Of a stretch of DNA of 64,000 bases, positions 6,643 to 53,393 are shown piece after piece (the first letter of the stretch is position 1; each line of letters starts with the position of its first letter). The notes under the pieces are model-generated. The model saw only the letters and a program-made list of their open reading frames with translations, did not search any database and was not told the origin of the DNA. A program made the translations under genes and the position numbers. The stretch lies in the IMG/VR virus record IMGVR_UViG_3300014208_001418. The stretch is one strand, 5' to 3'. The DNA is from a virus.

Positions 6643-8843
6643 CTTTAATTATACCCAATGAATTAAAAAATCTTCCCATTGCAAAAATCCTGCCTTCTAT
6701 TAATCTCAATTCTAGTTTTATTCTAATAGGAGCGACAGGAAGCGGAAAAACAATGTTAATACCCCCTATATTATCAGATATGCAAAAAAAGACAGTTTTG
6801 ATCAGACAACCTACCCGTTCAATAGCTAAACTAACCCATAAAGCTCTTAATGATTTCTTCGGTTCTCAATTAACTATAGGTATAATAACATCTGAAGATA
6901 AAGACACTGATTATAGATATCTTCATAATTATAATATTATAGTAATAACTGATGGTGTATTATCTACTATTATAAAAAAACTCGACCCTATGAGAATTAT
7001 TCTGATTTTTGATGAGGTACATTGGGGAACTCCTCCCCTAGAGGTCGATCTTTCCCTAGCACTTTCCTATAAGCAAACAAATCCTTCTCTCCAAATAGTC
7101 CTTCTATCCGCAACGATTTCCCCTTATACCTTCGTAAAATACTTTGAACAACTCTCCCCCAACCCAACCCCCGATTCCATTCTTCGTGACATCTGTCTAA
7201 TCTCTGAAACTGAAAAAGTCAATTCCTATCCACAACCCCAGCTCCTAAAAGTCTACTATTCAGAAGGTATGACTTATCCCATAACAAAACACGTAATAAA
7301 AGTTCCCGACATCAAAAACGTAGACGCTGAAATCTCAGCTTTCTGCTATCGCATGAAAAACAATAAAACATTCGGTCTAGTTTTTCTTCCCACGAGAGCC
7401 GATATTATACAAGCCGCCTCTAGATATTTTCCCATTTTGCCCACGTTGTACTTCCATGCAGACAGCCCCATCGAAGAGCTTATAGGCACCCAACCCCAAT
7501 CCTCGACCTCATCTCATCGTACTCCTCATTGTCCAAAACCCCTCACCCCCATCGATTCTATCCCATTCACACCCTCTCCCTCTCCAACAGCAACAGTCGT
7601 AAACAATCCTGTTCTAGTCCCAGTTCCCATTCCTACTCCAATTCCTCCTTCTCCCCCAATCCCTAAACTAAAACAAGGCTTCTTCAAAGATAATAAGCCG
7701 TCTGGGGGAGTTTGCTTCGCTACTATATCTTTAAGCACAAGCGTAACTCTACCATTTTCCGAAGTCCTTATAATCGATTCTACAAACGACAGCTCCTACA
7801 TAGAAGAGATCGAACAAAAAGTAGACAAATACGGAATCAACTGCGGAAGCAACGAAATCATTCAAAAAGCAGGTCGTGTAGGGCGTCTTTTCCCTGGAGA
7901 AGCAACCTTATTAACCAATCGTGACATAACCTTTGCAGACATAAAACCCACCAATATCATCCCCCCTCTCAGTAAGGAGATGCCAATCACCGCATCCCTA
8001 ATCTCAGCCTCACACGGAATTAACATCAAAAACGCCAAGCTCCTCACTACCCTAAGCCCAACTCAAATATCCAATTCCCTTGAAACCCTAACCTATTACA
8101 ATTTCATAGATAATACAGGTTCAATAACTCCAAAAGGAAGTCGTGCTTTAACCCTTCCTCTCAACGTACACGATGCAAAACTCCTTCTTTCCACACCTCC
8201 CTCCTTCATCCCAGCTACAGCAGCCTTCCTCTCATTCCCTCAAAGCATGTTCTATCTTATCGATCCCACCCTCTCCAAAACCACGCTCTTTTCCTCATAT
8301 TCCTTCAACTCCATCCCCCTCACTAAAATCCTCCTTCTCCAGGGAGCCATCGCAAACAAATCCACTCTCCATTCCTTCTGCAACTCCCTTTCCCTAAACC
8401 ATAAACGTATGAAATCCTCCCTCTTCAACTTCCATCAGCTAGGTCGTAAATTCTCCTTCTCTCCTTCCGACTTCGAAGATGCCCTTCTCGCCCTAGACTT
8501 CTCCCCAAACTCCCCTCTCTCCACTTCCTACCGAAACCTCCTCTATATGCTCCTCCCTAAATACAACATCCTCTTAGACGGTTCAGGTTTCCCCGTCCCA
8601 TCTCGCAAATCTTCCCATTACTCCTTCTTCTCCGATCCTCAATTCTTTTCCGTCCCTAACACCTTCATGCCCTACAAAGTATCAGGTCGTTTCTCCCTTT
8701 TCCAAGCAAAAGGCAAAATCTTCGGAAGAGTAACAGATGCTACCCTAAAACTCCTCCCAACTCCTCCCATTCCAACTTTATCTTCAACCTCCGTTCCTCT
8801 CTCAGCCTTACCCTCCGATTCTAATTCATTAATAACTCTATAG
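6639..8843 (+). CDS. HrpA-like DEAH-box SF2 helicase
   Basis: GATGSGKT, DEVH, SAT, FLPT, ATISLSTSVTL, QKAGRVGR; HA2-like region follows. Confidence 0.85.
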   Translation: MTLIIPNELKNLPIAKILPSINLNSSFILIGATGSGKTMLIPPILSDMQKKTVLIRQPTRSIAKLTHKALNDFFGSQLTIGIITSEDKDTDYRYLHNYNIIVITDGVLSTIIKKLDPMRIILIFDEVHWGTPPLEVDLSLALSYKQTNPSLQIVLLSATISPYTFVKYFEQLSPNPTPDSILRDICLISETEKVNSYPQPQLLKVYYSEGMTYPITKHVIKVPDIKNVDAEISAFCYRMKNNKTFGLVFLPTRADIIQAASRYFPILPTLYFHADSPIEELIGTQPQSSTSSHRTPHCPKPLTPIDSIPFTPSPSPTATVVNNPVLVPVPIPTPIPPSPPIPKLKQGFFKDNKPSGGVCFATISLSTSVTLPFSEVLIIDSTNDSSYIEEIEQKVDKYGINCGSNEIIQKAGRVGRLFPGEATLLTNRDITFADIKPTNIIPPLSKEMPITASLISASHGINIKNAKLLTTLSPTQISNSLETLTYYNFIDNTGSITPKGSRALTLPLNVHDAKLLLSTPPSFIPATAAFLSFPQSMFYLIDPTLSKTTLFSSYSFNSIPLTKILLLQGAIANKSTLHSFCNSLSLNHKRMKSSLFNFHQLGRKFSFSPSDFEDALLALDFSPNSPLSTSYRNLLYMLLPKYNILLDGSGFPVPSRKSSHYSFFSDPQFFSVPNTFMPYKVSGRFSLFQAKGKIFGRVTDATLKLLPTPPIPTLSSTSVPLSALPSDSNSLITL

Positions 8844-11082: not shown

Positions 11083-11115
11083 TTTTTATACTATCACATC
11101 TTAGTAGTAGTAGCA
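11083..11115 (+). promoter_or_regulatory. TATA + AGTAGTAGTAGCA promoter
   Basis: TTTTTATACT 11083-11092, exact 13-mer 11103-11115. Confidence 0.8.
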
Positions 11116-11813: not shown

Positions 11814-12501
11814 AAAGAGGAAGAAAACCCAATCCAAAACCTATTCATACTCCTACACCTATAAAGCTAATCGACCACATAAAATCCCTCAGACATCTCT
11901 CTCGCCCTTCAATTCCTCCCTCTCTTCCTATCCACACAAAACACAGAAATCAATTAACCAAACGTCAGCAAGCTCAAATCTCTCGAATTCAAAAATCATC
12001 CCACTCATCATGAAAACTAATCTAATCCTTAAAAATGTCTGCGATACATGCCTTTACCGCATAGATGAATGCCATTCTACTAGACTTTCCCTAAATCTCG
12101 ATCCTGAAGTAGAATGCACAGACTACCTCAAAGACCCCAGCACCCCAACTTCCATCCCTCTCCCCGATTACGTCCCTCCTGACGAAAAAACTCTATCTCC
12201 TGAGGAAGAATTTCTTATTTACAAAGAATGCTTTATCAACTATCTTTCATCCTTCCTAACCCAGTTTGCTAACGAAGTCACTAATAAACCCCTAACTCCC
12301 ATTCAAAAACTTCGCCTACGTGGCCTCCTTGAACTCGATTCCCATGCTCTCCTATTCGCTATTCAACACGGCATTCACCCAATAACAGGATGCAAATGGG
12401 ACATAACCAATCTCCGTTCCAAACATAAACTCAACACTCTCATCAAACGAAATAACAACATGATAACATACTTAAAAGATAATCAGGAGCATCATAGATG
12501 A
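11810..12501 (+). CDS. Two coupled hypothetical ORFs (11810-12013 basic; 12010-12501)
   Basis: ATGA overlaps. Confidence 0.55.
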
Positions 12502-13187
12502 ATTCAAATAAAAAAGTATTTTTAGAAATGTACCCTACGATACAGGGGGAAGGAGAAGACATCGGAAAACTAGCACTTCTACTAAGAACTTTCCAATGTA
12601 ATTTAAAATGTGAGTGGTGTGACACTAAGTTCTCATGGAATGAGAAACCAAAATTCTCTTCAGACGAAGCAATTGAATTCATAAAAACCAATCCTGCTTA
12701 TAATCTCATTATATTCAGTGGCGGGGAACCCCTGCTTCACCAAGACGAAATCGTCTACATCCTTAACACCCTAGAATCCCTATATCCAGACAAGTTTCCT
12801 CAATTTCGCTTCATAATCGAAACGAACTGCACTATAGCTCCTTGTATGGAACTCTACGAGATCATGCAATCTCAGGGAACATTTTCAGTCTCTCCCAAAT
12901 TTCACGCCCTCGACACTCTCATGATCAAAGCATTTGATTCTTTCCCAAATTCCTACTTCAAATTCGTAATCTCTGACCTTGAATCCGATATCAGCACCAT
13001 CCAACGCCTTTATTCCCAAAATATAATCACAAAACCCTTAACCATAGTCCAACCCAACGGAAACACACCTGATTACCTCTCTTCCTGTCGTTCCTTATGC
13101 GATTACATCATCTCCAACTCTCTAACCAATCTTCGCCCAATTCCACAATTCCACAAAATCTGCTGGCAAAATGCCCGAGGAAAATAA
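12498..13187 (+). CDS. queE: 7-carboxy-7-deazaguanine synthase (radical SAM)
   Basis: TIQGEG, CNLKCEWCDT, SGGEPLLH, IETN, SVSPK, FKFVI. Confidence 0.85.
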   Translation: MNSNKKVFLEMYPTIQGEGEDIGKLALLLRTFQCNLKCEWCDTKFSWNEKPKFSSDEAIEFIKTNPAYNLIIFSGGEPLLHQDEIVYILNTLESLYPDKFPQFRFIIETNCTIAPCMELYEIMQSQGTFSVSPKFHALDTLMIKAFDSFPNSYFKFVISDLESDISTIQRLYSQNIITKPLTIVQPNGNTPDYLSSCRSLCDYIISNSLTNLRPIPQFHKICWQNARGK

Positions 13188-19717: not shown

Positions 19718-20290
19718 ATGCATGTAAATCTTAACTATATCGAAGACATATCCACAGTAGATTACCATAACAAATCCTCCTGCGTAGTCTTCTTTAACGA
19801 ATGCCCCTTCAAATGTCCTACCTGCCACAACAAAATCACATGGAATAACATCAACCTTATCGACACATCAATCATAAAAACCCGAATCCGTTCTTGTCTT
19901 CCTTTCATCTCCGCCGTTGTTTTTTCGGGTGGTGAGCCCACAAAGCAAATCGGTCCCCTTCTCGAACTCTGTCAATTCTCAAAATCCCTTTCCCTATCCG
20001 TCGCTATCGAATCAAACGGTTTTTACCCCGAAAATCTTAACCGTCTCAAACCTTTCGTAGACATCTTCTACATCGATGTCAAAGCACCCATAAACTCCCC
20101 TAGCGCCTACTTCAACGCAACTAAGAACAAACATGCCTATTCTCGCATTAATTACACTCTCTCTCTTAATCTCCCCATAAAGATCCGCATTGTAGATATC
20201 AACAAATCCCTCACTACTCAAATCATTGACAGTCTCCCCAAAAAATTCGAAATCACTACCTTACCCTATATAATCCCCCCTAAACCATAA
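19718..20290 (+). CDS. nrdG: Anaerobic ribonucleotide reductase activating protein-like radical SAM enzyme
   Basis: STVDY...CVVFF-CPFKCPTCHN, VVFSGGEPT, IESNG, YIDVKAP. Confidence 0.7.
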   Translation: MHVNLNYIEDISTVDYHNKSSCVVFFNECPFKCPTCHNKITWNNINLIDTSIIKTRIRSCLPFISAVVFSGGEPTKQIGPLLELCQFSKSLSLSVAIESNGFYPENLNRLKPFVDIFYIDVKAPINSPSAYFNATKNKHAYSRINYTLSLNLPIKIRIVDINKSLTTQIIDSLPKKFEITTLPYIIPPKP

Positions 20291-32483: not shown

Positions 32484-34151
32484 ATGTCATACCCCGAATC
32501 CCCTGATCCCTTAACAGGAAAAGCACCTGTACATCAAGCAACAGCTTTAGAGAACGCTAAGCTCGCTTTAGTTCAAATGGGAAAAACAACTATACGCCCA
32601 TCCTCCACAAAGCTCGCAGATAAATACGAGATCATCGTCACAAAACTAGCATCTCCAATAACCTTCGAATATCTTCGCAAATCCTATACAGTTTCAGACG
32701 GATATCTTATCTCTCACACATCTCCCAAGCACTTCCATAAGATCCTAAAAGACATAAAATCAATTCCACAAGCTAAATATGTTTCCAACCTAAAAAATTG
32801 GTATATCCCCACCTCCTCTCTTCCCGAACTCTTATCCTTCATGTCAAAATACGCAATCGAATCTCTAGAAATAACTGAAATACCCCCACTCTCATCGGGT
32901 CTAGGAGAATTAACTATAGAAAATATCAATATCTCTAATGTTAGAAATGCTATACGTGACTTAGGATATGATGCATTTGATCATTCAAAAACAAAAACGA
33001 TTCCCGACTATTTAAAAACAATAGAACAAGTAATTAGGAACAAAATCTCATCAGGATATACAATACCTAGTTCTACTTCTGAACATACTATTGTTGCAGA
33101 TCACATTAAAACATTATACGCTGAAATATTGCAAGAAAAAAACCATAATACTTCCTTTCATTTATTTCGTGTAGGCGATAAAGTAGAAGCTTATTTCGAT
33201 GCTACACATCACATCCCCGCAGTTATAAACTTCGTGGGTAGTGATGAAATAAAAGTAACTCTTAGCGAAGGCTTAGTACATCCTAATGGAAGAAATTTTG
33301 AGCCTAAAGAACGAATTTCTTTCGATTATCCTTTTGTAAATGACGAAAAGATAGTTCTCATAGATTCATCTTCATCTTCTCAAAATTCTCAATCATATGC
33401 TTCTCCCGAAGTTCTTTCACGACCTCTGAGCGAGAGAATCTATGAAAATCTAACAGATACTTCCTCTGACGACAAAGAACTTACAGACGAAGAATTAACG
33501 ACCTACACAACGAAAATGTTTTCAAGTCCCAACCTCAAAAACTCAATACTCAACACTATCAAGAGCTTAGGAACACAATGGGAAGATACATTCAGACCTT
33601 CTATAGCAGGAACAGTAGGAAGAATACCATCGTCAACGACCCACCCATCTAAAAAACTCAGCAATCGAAATCTCCAGAATTTCATAAAAGAAATCGAAGA
33701 CAAGTACATAGCTGAATCAAAAGCAAAGGGTGAAAAACAAGTAGATCAAAACGAGATCGTAAAAATGATCAAGCAAATTCTAAAACTTGTTTATCCTGAC
33801 ACCAAGTTCTCTGTTCGAGGCTCTCGATATTCAATGGGGCACTCAATAGATGTCCGTTACGATTTAGGCCCAACATCAAAAGAGGTTAATGCCTTAGTCG
33901 GAAAATATCATGACAAGTCGTTTGACGGGATGAATGATAGTACTTCTTATTTAAACACTCCATGGAACACTGATAGCGTCAGCGTCAGTAGAAATATTCC
34001 TGATGACAAAAGATTTCAAGTGGCAAATAAAATTTTATTAGAGAACGAGTTATCAAAAACTGTTTCGACATGGTCAGAAATGAATGTAAAAGTAAACGAC
34101 AAATGGTTACAAGATATAGTAAATGAATACTTTAGTGAAACGAGCTTTTAA
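32484..34151 (+). CDS. Polyvalent-type protein with C-terminal LPD29-like domain
   Basis: IKQILKLVYPDTKFSVRGSRYSMGHSIDVRY...FDGMND; N-terminal KYVSNLKNWYIP (HARP-like). Confidence 0.65.
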   Translation: MSYPESPDPLTGKAPVHQATALENAKLALVQMGKTTIRPSSTKLADKYEIIVTKLASPITFEYLRKSYTVSDGYLISHTSPKHFHKILKDIKSIPQAKYVSNLKNWYIPTSSLPELLSFMSKYAIESLEITEIPPLSSGLGELTIENINISNVRNAIRDLGYDAFDHSKTKTIPDYLKTIEQVIRNKISSGYTIPSSTSEHTIVADHIKTLYAEILQEKNHNTSFHLFRVGDKVEAYFDATHHIPAVINFVGSDEIKVTLSEGLVHPNGRNFEPKERISFDYPFVNDEKIVLIDSSSSSQNSQSYASPEVLSRPLSERIYENLTDTSSDDKELTDEELTTYTTKMFSSPNLKNSILNTIKSLGTQWEDTFRPSIAGTVGRIPSSTTHPSKKLSNRNLQNFIKEIEDKYIAESKAKGEKQVDQNEIVKMIKQILKLVYPDTKFSVRGSRYSMGHSIDVRYDLGPTSKEVNALVGKYHDKSFDGMNDSTSYLNTPWNTDSVSVSRNIPDDKRFQVANKILLENELSKTVSTWSEMNVKVNDKWLQDIVNEYFSETSF

Positions 34152-34874
34152 ATGGTTAGGAATGAATTATTTTTTAATGAAATTGATAATGAATTCAAAG
34201 CTTACTGGCTAGGATTTATTTATGGAGATGGATGTATTTACCAAATTTACGATAAAGTTTATGGTAAATTAAATACAGGATCTCTTAATATAATGTTAAG
34301 TAAAAAAGATGAAAATCATCTTAAAAAATTTTCTGACATTTTCAGTACAACTCTATATTCTAATGAAAAAAGGAATGAATGCAGAGTTAGTATATGTAAT
34401 AAAAATATTTTTTATGACTTAAAAGATTTGGGAATGCCAGAAAGAGATATGAAAGTAATAATAAAAAAAGTGCCAGAAAAATTAATGAATCATTTTATCA
34501 GAGGATTATTTGACGCAGACGGGAGCGTTTATCTTAGAAAACGAATAAAAGGAACATCATTGGGAATAGGGATAGACATAGTATTCTCTAATATGGAGAT
34601 AGCTATTGATATTCAAAACATTTTATGTAAAAATACCTCTTTAAGTAAAACAAAGATATATGAATATAAAAAACAAAACTGTTTTAGACTCACGTATGGC
34701 GGAAGTGAAATGCCTTTATTTTTTGCTAATTAGATATACAAAGATTCTCATATTGTTCTTGAAAGAAAATATAACATCTTCAAAGATTATTACCTTAATC
34801 TATTAAATGAACCTACAACAGGAATAGCATATGAGGACTATATTGGTTTTCCAGATTTAGATTTGTTTGCGTAG
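34152..34874 (+). pseudogene. Double-motif LAGLIDADG homing endonuclease with one in-frame TAG (34731-34733)
   Basis: KAYWLGFIYGDGCI, FIRGLFDADGSV; same frame continues IYKDSHIVLERKY...DLDLFA. Confidence 0.8.
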
Positions 34875-34878
34875 CATA

Positions 34879-34941
34879 AAAATCCAAGATAAATGGTTGC
34901 AAGATTTGTTAAATGAATACTTTGAAGTCACATCTTTGTAA
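34879..34941 (+). repeat. Displaced duplicate of the LPD29-gene 3' end
   Basis: KIQDKWLQDLLNEYFEVTSL* versus KVNDKWLQDIVNEYFSETSF* at 34089-34151. Confidence 0.85.
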
Positions 34942-35019: not shown

Positions 35020-35592
35020 ATGTTTGAAAACCTAAAAAACACAACGATCATAACTATTGAAGGGAAAGACGGAAGCGGGAAGACAACCGTGGCAAAAATC
35101 CTAGCAGAAAAACTAAACGCCGAACTTATCAGCTTTCCAAAATATAATTCCCTAGCAGGTTCACGAATAAAACAAATTCTCACAAAGCAAATCCCTTTCC
35201 CGGGAGAACTTGAATTTCAATCACTTCAGCTTGCAGACAAAATAGAAGCATATAGAATACTAAATAACTATACTAAAATTCCTGAAACCATTGTCAATTG
35301 CCGATATTACGAGTCATCTTACGTTTATGCTAAAGCAAATGAAGGAGTTCCTCTTCAGTACCTTGTGAACATAAATTCAGTCCTACCTCAAAGCACACTC
35401 TCATTCGTTCTTAGCGGAAAGAACTACGGTAAAAACTCTGATTTCTACGAAACTGATCCAATGCAGAAAAAAGTATCATACCTCTATTTATCCTACGCTA
35501 AAAAATTCAAGTGGAACATCATAAACAATGAACAGCCTATCGAATCAGTAGTAAACGAGATCATAAGTAAAATTCATGCATACAACAACTAA
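35020..35592 (+). CDS. tmk: Thymidylate kinase
   Basis: IEGKDGSGKTT, ISFPKY, CRYYESSYVY. Confidence 0.8.
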   Translation: MFENLKNTTIITIEGKDGSGKTTVAKILAEKLNAELISFPKYNSLAGSRIKQILTKQIPFPGELEFQSLQLADKIEAYRILNNYTKIPETIVNCRYYESSYVYAKANEGVPLQYLVNINSVLPQSTLSFVLSGKNYGKNSDFYETDPMQKKVSYLYLSYAKKFKWNIINNEQPIESVVNEIISKIHAYNN

Positions 35593-37693: not shown

Positions 37694-38248
37694 TTGATGA
37701 ATTCATCGAATCCTACGAAAAAAATCTTCCAGAGTGAAAACATGCTCAAACAAATCAACAAATTTTTACAGAATCCAAGACGTGAAGTAAAAAAATTCTT
37801 TTGCACGTCATTCGGTGTGTACAAAGACGGAAAGACAGCAGTAAGCAACATTTATATTCTTTTTTTCGGAAGCCTTTATCTTTTCTTTTTAGGAATGATA
37901 GCGTATGCGACATATATAGTTATAATCCTTATATCACAGCTTCCAGCATTTCTGCTTTCCCTGACTAAAGCTGACCTGATATTTTTAATCAAAGAATTCT
38001 TAATTGCAACTCTTATATGGATAATACTTATAGGAATGGAAAGAACAGGTATATTTTCCTTATTAAACAACCTATTCATAAGAAAAGGTATAACCTGCGA
38101 GTACATGTCAATAACTCCAGAAGTTAAAGACATATTCGCAAAAATAGACTCTCTTCCCATTCCCCAAAAGAAAGAATTCTTACGTGCATCAACTGCCATC
38201 GAATGCAAACTCATAAATGATATTCAAGCACTCAAGGAGACTCAATAA
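37694..38248 (+). CDS. Membrane protein
   Basis: Two to three TM segments. Confidence 0.6.
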   Translation: MMNSSNPTKKIFQSENMLKQINKFLQNPRREVKKFFCTSFGVYKDGKTAVSNIYILFFGSLYLFFLGMIAYATYIVIILISQLPAFLLSLTKADLIFLIKEFLIATLIWIILIGMERTGIFSLLNNLFIRKGITCEYMSITPEVKDIFAKIDSLPIPQKKEFLRASTAIECKLINDIQALKETQ

Positions 38249-39223
38249 ATGGAAATTAACGAACTAATAGGCCTAAAAACGGGCTCACGCAATTTGGCGT
38301 GGACAACATCAGAAGGAACAAAAACAGTTCCCTCTTGTATAGGTGAAGAACTCGATATCCACAACAAAGTAATAAACTATATCTTCAATAAACCTGAAAA
38401 CAAACTCAGCAAATACCCCCTCAACAGAGGCATAGTAACAAATGCCTCCTCTCAAAATCTCCTGATAAAACTTCTTGAGCATACTCAAATCCCACGATTC
38501 TCTAACTTAGTCGTGGCTGCTCCTGAAACTGAGCTAACAGAAGGTCAGAATATGCTCAAAGATGCGATCATAAAAGCTTTAAGCCCCAACAAAGACTTTA
38601 TCCTCTATCCAGAATCCTTCTGCGGAGCCGTTTACAAGATGGGAGTCGATACAGCCCTGAACAATTTTTTCACAGCTTTAAACTTAGGTTCAACATCAAC
38701 AGGTATAGGAGTTTTCACCCCCATAGGCGAAAAGCGAAAACTCGTTTTAACAGCTACCAACGATGTTTCAGGCTCCTCTGTAGACGAAAAAATCCTTCAA
38801 CGCCTGAAAAATACATATGGCTCCGTAGTCGTGAACATCAGCAAAATCCAAGACCTCAAAGAGAAATCCTCTCTCAAACTTGAATCCAATGCCTTCACTC
38901 CCATAGACATTATTGAAGGCACTCACCAAAAAACGAAAGACTGCACCTCAGAGTTCCAAACAGAACTTGACCTATATGCCCAAGACGTATCCAATCTCTT
39001 CGTAAAAATATTCTCCCTGCCCAGTTCAACCTTCCGATACGACATGATCAATTCACCAGTAATTTTAACCGGTGGAATGGTAAATATCCCCGGAATGTCC
39101 CAACGCATAAAAAAATACATCGATGAAAAAACCAACGCCAACATCGATCTTCAGACAGTCGAAGACGGGCATCTCGCACCCGCAAAAGGTGGATTTTTGC
39201 TGGCAGGAGAACAATATTCATGA
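38249..39223 (+). CDS. Actin-fold (MreB/MamK-like) protein with degenerate phosphate motifs
   Basis: IGLKTGSRN, PLNRGIV, YPESFCGA, LNLGSTST, GSSVDEKI, VILTGGMVNIPGM. Confidence 0.75.
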   Translation: MEINELIGLKTGSRNLAWTTSEGTKTVPSCIGEELDIHNKVINYIFNKPENKLSKYPLNRGIVTNASSQNLLIKLLEHTQIPRFSNLVVAAPETELTEGQNMLKDAIIKALSPNKDFILYPESFCGAVYKMGVDTALNNFFTALNLGSTSTGIGVFTPIGEKRKLVLTATNDVSGSSVDEKILQRLKNTYGSVVVNISKIQDLKEKSSLKLESNAFTPIDIIEGTHQKTKDCTSEFQTELDLYAQDVSNLFVKIFSLPSSTFRYDMINSPVILTGGMVNIPGMSQRIKKYIDEKTNANIDLQTVEDGHLAPAKGGFLLAGEQYS

Positions 39224-52032: not shown

Positions 52033-52737
52033 ATGAAAAGAAAATCTAATCGTATAGTGTCAATTTTATCGGGAGGGATGGACAGCACTACGCTAACTTA
52101 TGATTTAGCATTGTCTGGAAATGAAGTTTTTGCTATCAGCTTTAATTACCAGCAAAAACATGTTCGAGAACTTGAATGTGCTAAGGCAACATGTAAAAAA
52201 CTTAATATTCCTCATAAGATAGTAGATATAAGCTCTATCAGCTCCATTCTCCAGGGAAGCTCATTGACATCTCCTGATATTCCAACTCCTCATGGAAAAT
52301 ACGATGAAGAGAACATGAAACAAACAGTCGTTCCTAATCGTAATATGATTATGATCAGCTTAGCTACTGCTTATGCTATCAGCATAGGAGCAACTGAAGT
52401 TTATTATGGAGCCCATGCTGGAGACCACGCTGTGTACATGGATTGTCGACCTGAATTCGTAAGCAAACTCCAAGAAGTAATCAAAATATGTGACTGGAAT
52501 AAAGTAGAACTCAAAGCTCCATATCTTAATCTTGACAAAGGAGATATCGCAATTATAGGTAAGATGCTTCACGTAGACTATGAAAACACGACTAGCTGTT
52601 ATGAAGGCAAAGAAACCCCTTGTTTAAAGTGTGGAAGTTGTGATGAACGTATAGGAGCATTTATAAAAGCAGATATGAGAGATCCTATAATAGATGAATA
52701 TAATTGGAGCAGAATATTAAAAGAGAAAGTACTATGA
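52033..52737 (+). CDS. queC: 7-cyano-7-deazaguanine synthase
   Basis: LSGGMDST, VPNRNMI, DCRPEF, SCY...CLKCGSC. Confidence 0.92.
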   Translation: MKRKSNRIVSILSGGMDSTTLTYDLALSGNEVFAISFNYQQKHVRELECAKATCKKLNIPHKIVDISSISSILQGSSLTSPDIPTPHGKYDEENMKQTVVPNRNMIMISLATAYAISIGATEVYYGAHAGDHAVYMDCRPEFVSKLQEVIKICDWNKVELKAPYLNLDKGDIAIIGKMLHVDYENTTSCYEGKETPCLKCGSCDERIGAFIKADMRDPIIDEYNWSRILKEKVL

Positions 52738-53393
52738 ATTGTATTCATTGCAATAAACCATTAAACCGCGGCAGTAAATTTTGTAGTCAAAAATGTTATC
52801 AAGATTTTAAAAAAGCAATTTTTGATTTGAAGTACACAAAGCGATGCACAATTTGTGGAAAAGATTTTAGATGTCCCTCAACTGCGCCAAGAAAAAAAAC
52901 ATGTAGCATTGAATGTAAAAGAATTTTAAACACACAAAAAACATGGAAGGAAGAAACAAATAAAAAACGTGCTGAAACTTTGATAGCCTTTTATAGCACT
53001 CATGAAAAGAAGGGATATAAGCTCAGTGAAAAAAGCAAGTTAAAAATAAGAGAATCTTGTAAAGGTATAAATAAAGGCAGTAAAAACGGGAATTGGAGAG
53101 ATGGAGCATCTAAGAATATATTTAGAGGAGACGATTAGAAATATATCAGAAAAGAAATTTATAAACGGGATAATTACACATGTCAAATATGCGGAAAACG
53201 AAATTGTTTAATTTATGCCCATCATAAAGTTCCATGGAGAATTGAAAAGAATAATAATAGTGATAATCTTATTACATTGTGTAGAAGTTGTCATACTAAG
53301 GAAGATAATAAAATTATAAATGCCGAAAAGACTGAGGCTTTTAAAAAAGCAGAGATGAATGATTCATTGATAAGTCATAAGGAGATTCTATGA
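52704..53393 (+). pseudogene. HNH homing endonuclease (zinc-finger/NUMOD-like N-terminus) with one in-frame TAG (53136-53138)
   Basis: Same frame continues KYIRKEIYKRDNYTCQICG...HHKVPW...NLITLCRSCH. Confidence 0.8.

Follow-up and report, generated by a model that had tools for sequence, protein, structure and literature searches.

A LAGLIDADG endonuclease gene within a duplicated 3' gene end of a large, probably archaeal, virus

The locus

The window analyzed here is the whole 64,000-nucleotide (nt) stretch taken from the IMG/VR virus record IMGVR_UViG_3300014208_001418, nearly all of which codes on the + strand at ~36% G+C. Within it, the gene for an LPD29-domain protein (the host gene) is directly followed by a LAGLIDADG homing endonuclease gene (HEG), and the coding sequence for the C terminus of the host protein is present on both sides of the HEG. 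Our interpretation, to which we give a probability of about 60%, is that the HEG is lodged at the 3' end of the LPD29 gene in a "home-and-rescue" layout, in a virus of ~148 kb that is probably archaeal. The features of the locus are as follows (aa, amino acids; ORF, open reading frame):

32484-34151, + strand: LPD29-domain host gene, complete, 555 aa (ORF list; Pfam PF18847, 2.3e-15)
34070-34085, + strand: X1, 16 nt, left half of the uninterrupted insertion site; host codons T529-N534, of which WSE also occurs in the relative L003 described below (repeat scan D7)
34087-34151, + strand: T1, the upstream tail in use, comprising the last 20 codons and TAA (repeat comparison); predicted terminal alpha-helix
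34152-34167, + strand: X2, diverged copy of X1, which gives the ATG and first five codons (MVRNE) of the endonuclease ORF
34168-34876, + strand: insert of 709 nt between X2 and T2, endonuclease coding sequence only, low G+C
34152-34874, + strand: LAGLIDADG homing endonuclease ORF, 193 codons to a TAG, 240 on read-through
34731-34733, + strand: in-frame TAG at codon 194 of the endonuclease; homologues have W, Y, F, or H there
34877-34941, + strand: T2, the downstream tail copy, out of use, with its own TAA; +1 frame, closed upstream by TAG 34858-34860, no start codon
34990-35019, + strand: promoter-like element of tmk, a TATA-like box and a GTAGTAGTAGCAGT motif running into the ATG; intact 3' of T2
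35020-35592, + strand: thymidylate kinase gene (tmk; Pfam), the conserved right neighbor of the LPD29 gene in relatives

The overall order is thus X1-T1-stop / X2-[709 nt]-T2-stop. Two public assemblies (ENA ERZ27249449 and JGI 3300037810; ~148.4-kb contig) are 100% identical to the window at this locus, in-frame TAG included. Their start points differ, which would be normal if the viral genome is circular or circularly permuted. Scans of the window for tRNAs and Rfam families gave no match.

A duplicated gene end surrounds the endonuclease

The first-pass annotation of this DNA, made by a model from the letters alone, had noticed that the last 20 codons of the LPD29 gene recur in diverged form just after the endonuclease, and this holds. 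The host gene ends ...KVNDKWLQDIVNEYFSETSF-TAA (34089-34151), and the second copy reads KIQDKWLQDLLNEYFEVTSL-TAA at 34879-34941 in the +1 frame. The two are identical at 44/63 nt and 13/20 aa, with TAA aligned to TAA. When the tail was compared with all six frames of the window by tblastn, T2 was retrieved at an E value of 8.4e-8 and the next best match at 0.65; blastn-short with the tail gave 2.6e-4 for T2. A separate repeat scan recovered the same pair (repeat D1, 34087-34133 and 34877-34923; 47 nt, 81%). The annotation was also right that the endonuclease start abuts the stop of the first copy: TAA 34149-34151 is followed by ATG 34152 in the same frame and with zero spacer.

The repeat scan further showed that ATGGTCAGAAATGAAT at 34070-34085 recurs as ATGGTTAGGAATGAAT at 34152-34167 (repeat D7, 14/16). 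X1 stops one base short of the upstream tail repeat. In 200,000 random trials modeled on this window, a 14/16 match arose by chance at a frequency of 4e-4 within 51 nearby offsets and 5.5e-5 within 7. The duplicated gene end therefore measures 82 nt (16-nt X plus 66-nt tail T) and covers the last 27 codons, and its second copy is interrupted between ...AATGAAT and (G)TAAAA... by positions 34168-34876, which maps the insertion point to one nucleotide. Given the X1/X2 repeat, the HEG lies within a second gene-end copy and does not simply carry a tail. The proposal of the first-pass annotation that the HEG brought a replacement tail with it was in this respect too simple, as 16 nt of host sequence preceding the tail were duplicated as well and form the first five HEG codons.

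The start codon of the HEG is thus derived from the host gene. In the HEG frame, X1 and X2 both encode MVRNE, and their two differences are synonymous; in the LPD29 frame, the same two differences would alter the Ser and Glu of the WSE motif, which is also found in L003. An Asn near the HEG N terminus that is conserved in its family falls in the AATGAAT common to X and the HEG, which would fit a first insertion mediated by microhomology. Across the junction, the intact and split copies differ at 6 of ~22 positions (2/11 left, 4/11 right).

At 26.6% G+C, against 35.8% for the window, the insert is compositionally foreign. Composition cannot separate T1 from T2, as both have 27% G+C.

LAGLIDADG genes usually reside in introns or inteins, and enzymes of both origins are among the top structural matches of this one (see below). 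Were the segment between the tails an intron (group I, group II, or archaeal bulge-helix-bulge) or an intein, the product would end with the downstream tail. The reading frames speak against this: the HEG ATG stands behind a TAA, a TAG closes the HEG frame, T2 lies in another frame, and the upstream copy already gives a complete tail and stop. Neither splicing residues nor structured RNA, which would mark an intein- or intron-borne HEG, were found; no intron family scored in Rfam, no Hint/intein domain matched the HEG in Pfam, and no long complementary arms or inverted repeat pair the two junctions. We consider splicing barely credible here.

Divergence of the two tails

The differences between T1 and T2 are clustered in few codons and are conservative (V/I, I/L, V/L, F/L, N/Q), and one Ser is encoded by AGC in one tail and TCT in the other. 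To set this against neutral drift, 19 random substitutions were placed on the upstream tail in 200,000 trials. As many residues as observed (13/20 or more) survived in only 0.076% of trials (P = 7.6e-4), and none of the 200,000 reached the observed BLOSUM62 score. The frame remained open in 38% of trials, and the stop was kept in 40%.

These results bear on a simple local origin, in which the 82 nt were copied in place by imprecise repair of the insertion and the downstream copy then drifted neutrally. Duplications associated with repair are common at break sites, and the two copies here are adjacent and collinear. The observed divergence is nevertheless not neutral: 13/20 residues are kept despite 19/63 nucleotide differences, the substitutions are conservative, the Ser codons differ as AGC and TCT, and both the stop and the open frame survive. 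Drift of 30% in the tail is also hard to square with the HEG ORF, in which just one defect is seen. The selection-like pattern therefore rules out duplication in place followed by drift as modeled, and we rate this origin as very unlikely.

Judged from the sequences, both tails appear to have evolved as working coding sequence in separate lineages before they were united. This is the pattern anticipated by the first-pass annotation if one tail came from another allele. Such divergence fits an allelic origin (from another virus), while a paralogous origin would be less simple.

An AlphaFold2 (AF2) model of the LPD29 C-terminal domain (mean predicted local distance difference test [pLDDT] score, 81.7) shows the tail as an ordered terminal helix (residues 158-170 of the fragment; pLDDT, 86-89). 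The insertion point lies in the loop that precedes this helix.

The endonuclease and its premature stop

The HEG product matches PHROG 4645 (3.7e-30) and scores above the cutoffs of Pfam LAGLIDADG_1 and LAGLIDADG_3. Homologues were retrieved (n = 149), the best of them 37-38% identical, with no close relative. Two LAGLIDADG motifs are present, LGFIYGDG (D26 and G27) and RGLFDADG (D121/D123 and G124), and their columns are invariant or near-invariant in 42 homologues. All invariant columns of the 42-sequence alignment are kept in the HEG, including Y196, L203, R205, and K206, which lie past the TAG. The AF2 model of the read-through product (pLDDT, 89.4; predicted template modeling score, 0.87) has the order alpha-beta-beta-alpha-beta-beta-alpha twice, although its last 20 residues are poorly predicted. 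Foldseek placed I-AniI, I-OnuI, I-LtrI, PI-PfuI, and I-Tsp061I among the top matches of this model (E values down to 7e-10). By its modeled fold, the HEG product is a monomeric two-domain LAGLIDADG enzyme.

The reading frame is interrupted at codon 194, and conserved sequence continues beyond that point. The frame runs from the TAG at 34731-34733 for 46 more codons to the TAG at 34872-34874, 2 nt 5' of T2. In the model, the premature stop coincides with the end of the last core helix, and the C-terminal helix lost to it is well predicted and conserved. The simplest reading is that the TAG is a recent inactivating mutation and marks an early stage in the decay of a homing element. The sequence thus points to a HEG that is now probably inactive or in early decay.

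Recoding of TAG was considered and rejected, since 11 ordinary ORFs of the window have TAG as their stop and the frames continuing past it are only two, both of endonucleases. These frames (TAG at 34731 and 53136) are the only ones in the window to run at least 40 codons past a TAG, and homologues often have Trp at the position. Independent TGG-to-TAG inactivation of both endonuclease genes is the simplest reading; a common cause, for instance G-to-A editing or regulated read-through, would be another. The second gene lies in the queC/HNH region (52033-53393), where an ORF for an HNH endonuclease overlaps the stop of queC (Pfam, 8e-62) and is itself interrupted by an in-frame TAG at 53136-53138. 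We looked at a similarity between the queC tail and the HNH C terminus (8/16 residues) and do not use it as support, as its tblastn E value is 0.31 window-wide and a better chance match occurs elsewhere. The queC-HNH arrangement is suggestive by position; the similarity alone is not significant.

Relatives without the endonuclease

Relatives of the LPD29 host protein are rare, with only three found in ~15 billion proteins. In L003 (Logan SRR29054606, a 43.7-kb contig), tmk (start, 7809) follows the 981-aa orthologue P0122 (end, 7675), and the gap contains nothing HEG-like. The L003 gene order parallels that of the window (blastp identities of 63% for tmk, 56% for HAD, and 62% for the actin-like protein). 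In L004 (GCA_041643255.1), the C-terminal LPD29 piece ends at 7106 and tmk, 51% identical to that of the window, starts at 7155; the 48-nt gap holds no endonuclease. On the contig of a further relative (P0001), 165 nt separate the LPD29-gene relative from the next gene. The P0122 and P0001 proteins end at the aligned position of both tails. Because the LPD29 gene is directly followed by tmk, without an endonuclease, in the syntenic L003 and L004, the HEG is an insertion, as the first-pass annotation had supposed.

That annotation had also asked for relatives carrying the empty allele, to learn which tail they end with. Relatives lacking the HEG were found, as described; on the identity of the tails, they say little. 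The L003 tail, from the only empty allele available as DNA, is identical to T1 at 40/63 nt and 11/20 aa and to T2 at 35/63 nt and 10/20 aa (aa values counted by hand), and L003 is distant from the window.

Further searches for relatives added little. Word-index protein searches (near and longer lengths) returned only P0001 and P0122, and all that an exhaustive HMMER search contributed beyond these were split or partial forms. No relative emerged when IMG/VR and the JGI metagenomes were scanned with single proteins; scans with alignment A3 found none in the JGI metagenomes and GTDB genomes and only distant LPD29-domain proteins in IMG/VR. A degenerate DNA pattern of the tail had 0 matches in IMG/VR. 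Scans based on tmk returned only L013, where the genes are ordered differently and no LPD29 gene lies upstream, and a tmk from Nanoarchaeota at 28% identity. The loci of two HEG homologues (L009 and L011) showed no gene-end duplication.

L003 bears on another origin of the second gene end. The HEG may have entered the 3' end of a second, tandem LPD29 paralogue, where redundancy made the insertion tolerable, and a later deletion may have removed that paralogue up to the ATG in X2; neither a donor allele nor a carried tail would then be involved. L003 does carry a tandem gene, P0125 (531 aa), immediately upstream of P0122 (981 aa), and paralogues within one genome would explain both the selection-like divergence of T1 and T2 and the presence of X2 to the left of the HEG. 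The truncated paralogue of L003 is, however, upstream and lacks the LPD29 domain and tail, and in both L003 and L004 the LPD29 gene is followed directly by tmk. The ends of the deletion would also have to fall exactly at the stop of the first gene and at the ATG in X2, and the window shows no other remnant of a second copy. We regard this origin as unlikely.

Several other observations concern the LPD29 gene family. The tandem L003 paralogues (L003:3135-7675), of which P0125 has no LPD29 domain, have the N-terminal ~125 aa in common. The middle part of the family contains a variable number of short repeats (F-K/N-V-G-D...A.W), giving lengths of 555, 696, and 981 aa. Behind the L003 gene, a very basic 27-codon ORF (MKKKKFSAVKSH...; L003:7672-7755) overlaps the LPD29 stop by ATGA and occupies the intergenic space that in the window holds the HEG. 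In L004, the LPD29 gene is split (L004:4501-6771; JBGGGX010001121.1) into pieces of 532 aa (N-terminal) and 111 aa (LPD29) by an insertion that comprises a 132-aa ORF, a serine recombinase (Resolvase), and OrfB_IS605/TnpB and resembles an IS607-type element. The LPD29 gene has thus been struck by a different mobile element in another virus.

Genome context and host

The host of the HEG is likely an archaeal virus. A promoter-like motif, GTAGTAGTAGCA(G/A)T, occurs 12 times in the window against 0.13 expected (e.g., at 11104, 15395, 20315, 23525, 35006, and 52019), with a TATA-like box (TTTATATA or TTAAATA) 10 to 12 nt upstream. At tmk and queC, the motif runs straight into the ATG (leaderless), and in the aligned sites the TATA-like box is centered ~26 nt before leaderless starts. 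The tmk element with its GTAGTAGTAGCAGT motif is conserved before tmk in L003 and L004. A scan of the window for sigma-70 promoters and terminators found no more sites than in shuffled sequence. An actin-fold protein (38249-39223) belongs to the Salactin family (Pfam, 1.4e-27) and is 62% identical to its L003 counterpart; the nearest Atlas clusters of this protein are 92 to 100% archaeal (Methanobacteriota). The distant, 28%-identical tmk match comes from a Nanoarchaeota metagenome-assembled genome. The first-pass annotation had called the element archaeal, which the TATA-like promoter geometry and the archaeal clusters nearest the actin-like protein make plausible, short of proof.

The window also contains queC and two radical S-adenosylmethionine (SAM) genes (12498-13187, 19718-20290, and 52033-52737). 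GTP cyclohydrolase (GCHY-1) and TGT-like genes occur on the P0001 contig, and a large ORF (L013:14-1309) lies beside a family B polymerase-like gene. Together, these genes suggest 7-deazaguanine DNA modification in this virus group.

Comparison with known systems

The arrangement resembles that of the mORFs of Glomus sp., found at atp6, atp9, cox2, and nad3 (Beaudet et al. 2013, PMC3630166), and of the atp6 mORF of Allomyces macrogynus (Paquin, Laforest and Lang 1994, as cited in PMC3630166). In mORFs, as here, a LAGLIDADG (or GIY-YIG) ORF immediately follows a host gene and is flanked by two versions of the sequence for the C terminus of the host protein. The version in use precedes the ORF, a diverged one that is not used comes after it, and relatives lack the ORF. 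The gene-end copies are likewise low in nucleotide and high in amino acid identity (63.5% and 91%, respectively, for Glomus atp6; PMC3630166). There are also differences. The present locus belongs to a prokaryotic (probably archaeal) virus instead of a mitochondrion, and its duplication is very small at 27 codons. Part of the second copy (16 nt) is placed left of the HEG and gives the HEG its start codon, and no close relative was found that would show which copy is foreign. Whereas some mORFs are in phase with the gene without a stop, the HEG is set off from the LPD29 gene by one.

A second parallel is provided by the WHO elements at yeast FBA1, whose enzymes have been shown to cleave in an allele-specific manner (Coughlan et al. 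2020, eLife; PMC7282813). The homing unit there is also a nuclease gene plus an upstream 3' end of the target gene that confers resistance; the old 3' end remains downstream as a homology arm, and the model explains the immunity of the carrier allele. In contrast to the present locus, WHO proteins are intein-like/HO-like and belong to a nuclear genome, and WHO elements replace several hundred nucleotides and build clusters, while a single 82-nt cassette is found here. The parallel drawn in the first-pass annotation, to fungal mitochondria, is apt and extends to yeast.

Among viruses, the free-standing HEGs of T4-like phages show intronless homing and marker exclusion (reviewed in PMC2988022). 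They too lie between or beside conserved viral genes; double-strand-break repair during coinfection co-converts flanking markers, and the carrier is immune through differences in its target sequence. Those HEGs are of the GIY-YIG or HNH type, not LAGLIDADG. Duplicated gene ends at phage HEGs are not described in PMC10448857.

In common with mORFs and WHO elements, the locus has a complete host gene with a nuclease gene directly 3' of it, then a second 3' end that has diverged and is not used, and an empty site in (distant) relatives. It differs in that the duplicated segment does not lie wholly to the right of the nuclease gene, starting from the cut site, as X2 stands to the left of the insert. 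This is a departure from the mORF/WHO layout in detail, not in principle. The layout is known from fungal mitochondria and yeast, and the locus is a new example mapped to the nucleotide, without a new principle; the host-derived HEG start and the left-hand 16-nt copy X2 are its one unusual detail.

Proposed working and history of the cassette

The homing logic that we propose is the one demonstrated for WHO elements (PMC7282813) and proposed for mORFs (PMC3630166). An intact enzyme would cut susceptible alleles at the X/T junction. In repair templated by a genome that carries the cassette, the left end would pair with the gene body and X1, and the right end with T2, the intergenic region, and tmk. 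T1, X2, and the HEG would thereby be copied into the recipient, whose LPD29 gene would stay whole. The carrier would presumably be uncuttable, since the split copy lacks the junction and the intact copy differs from it at 6 of ~22 positions. For translation of the HEG, termination-reinitiation at TAAATG is plausible, as such junctions occur commonly in this genome (e.g., 38246-38251).

With respect to history, X1-T1 and X2...T2 would derive from two diverged alleles. The presence of X2 implies that the HEG once directly interrupted the gene end and that a single illegitimate event then placed an intact end before it. Two sequences of steps would fit: a foreign end may have rescued a disrupted allele, or a fragment of a disrupted allele may have been captured behind an intact gene. 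More tentatively, the locus may preserve the founding steps themselves. The HEG would have landed in coding sequence at its own cut site via AATGAAT microhomology, taking an out-of-frame host ATG as its start (X2-HEG-T2), and the diverged X1-T1 would have been joined in front afterward. We think it possible, though doubtful, that events ran in this way.

Several points weigh against the home-and-rescue interpretation as a whole. No close empty allele was found, and the relatives, at 51 to 63% protein identity (tmk and LPD29 C-terminal regions), are too distant to name the native copy. L004 lacks the C-terminal tail altogether, so the tail may be dispensable. A second genome with this cassette was not found, which leaves spread by homing a proposal. 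The loss of a conserved helix to the premature stop makes present-day activity of the HEG doubtful. Finally, X2 is unexpected if the HEG simply carries a tail, and its presence calls for the extra illegitimate joining step.

Implications

If the home-and-rescue interpretation is correct, a strategy published for fungal mitochondria and for yeast also operates in a large, probably archaeal, virus. There, a selfish nuclease would enter a coding region without an intron or intein, the host gene being kept whole by a spare end with a different spelling. Mapping of the insertion to one nucleotide provides a candidate target of ~22 bp for an uncharacterized LAGLIDADG enzyme, together with a natural pair of candidate "sensitive" and "resistant" sequences.

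For genome annotation, short orphan "tails" behind endonuclease genes may be read as footprints of gene-end replacement, and the 3' ends of viral genes beside HEGs may be chimeric. The 16-nt repeat that supplies the HEG start codon hints at how such cassettes arise. Should the locus indeed preserve the founding steps, the joining of X1-T1 would have created both a resistant allele and the translational coupling of the HEG, and the birth of home-and-rescue elements would be on view in an archaeal virus.

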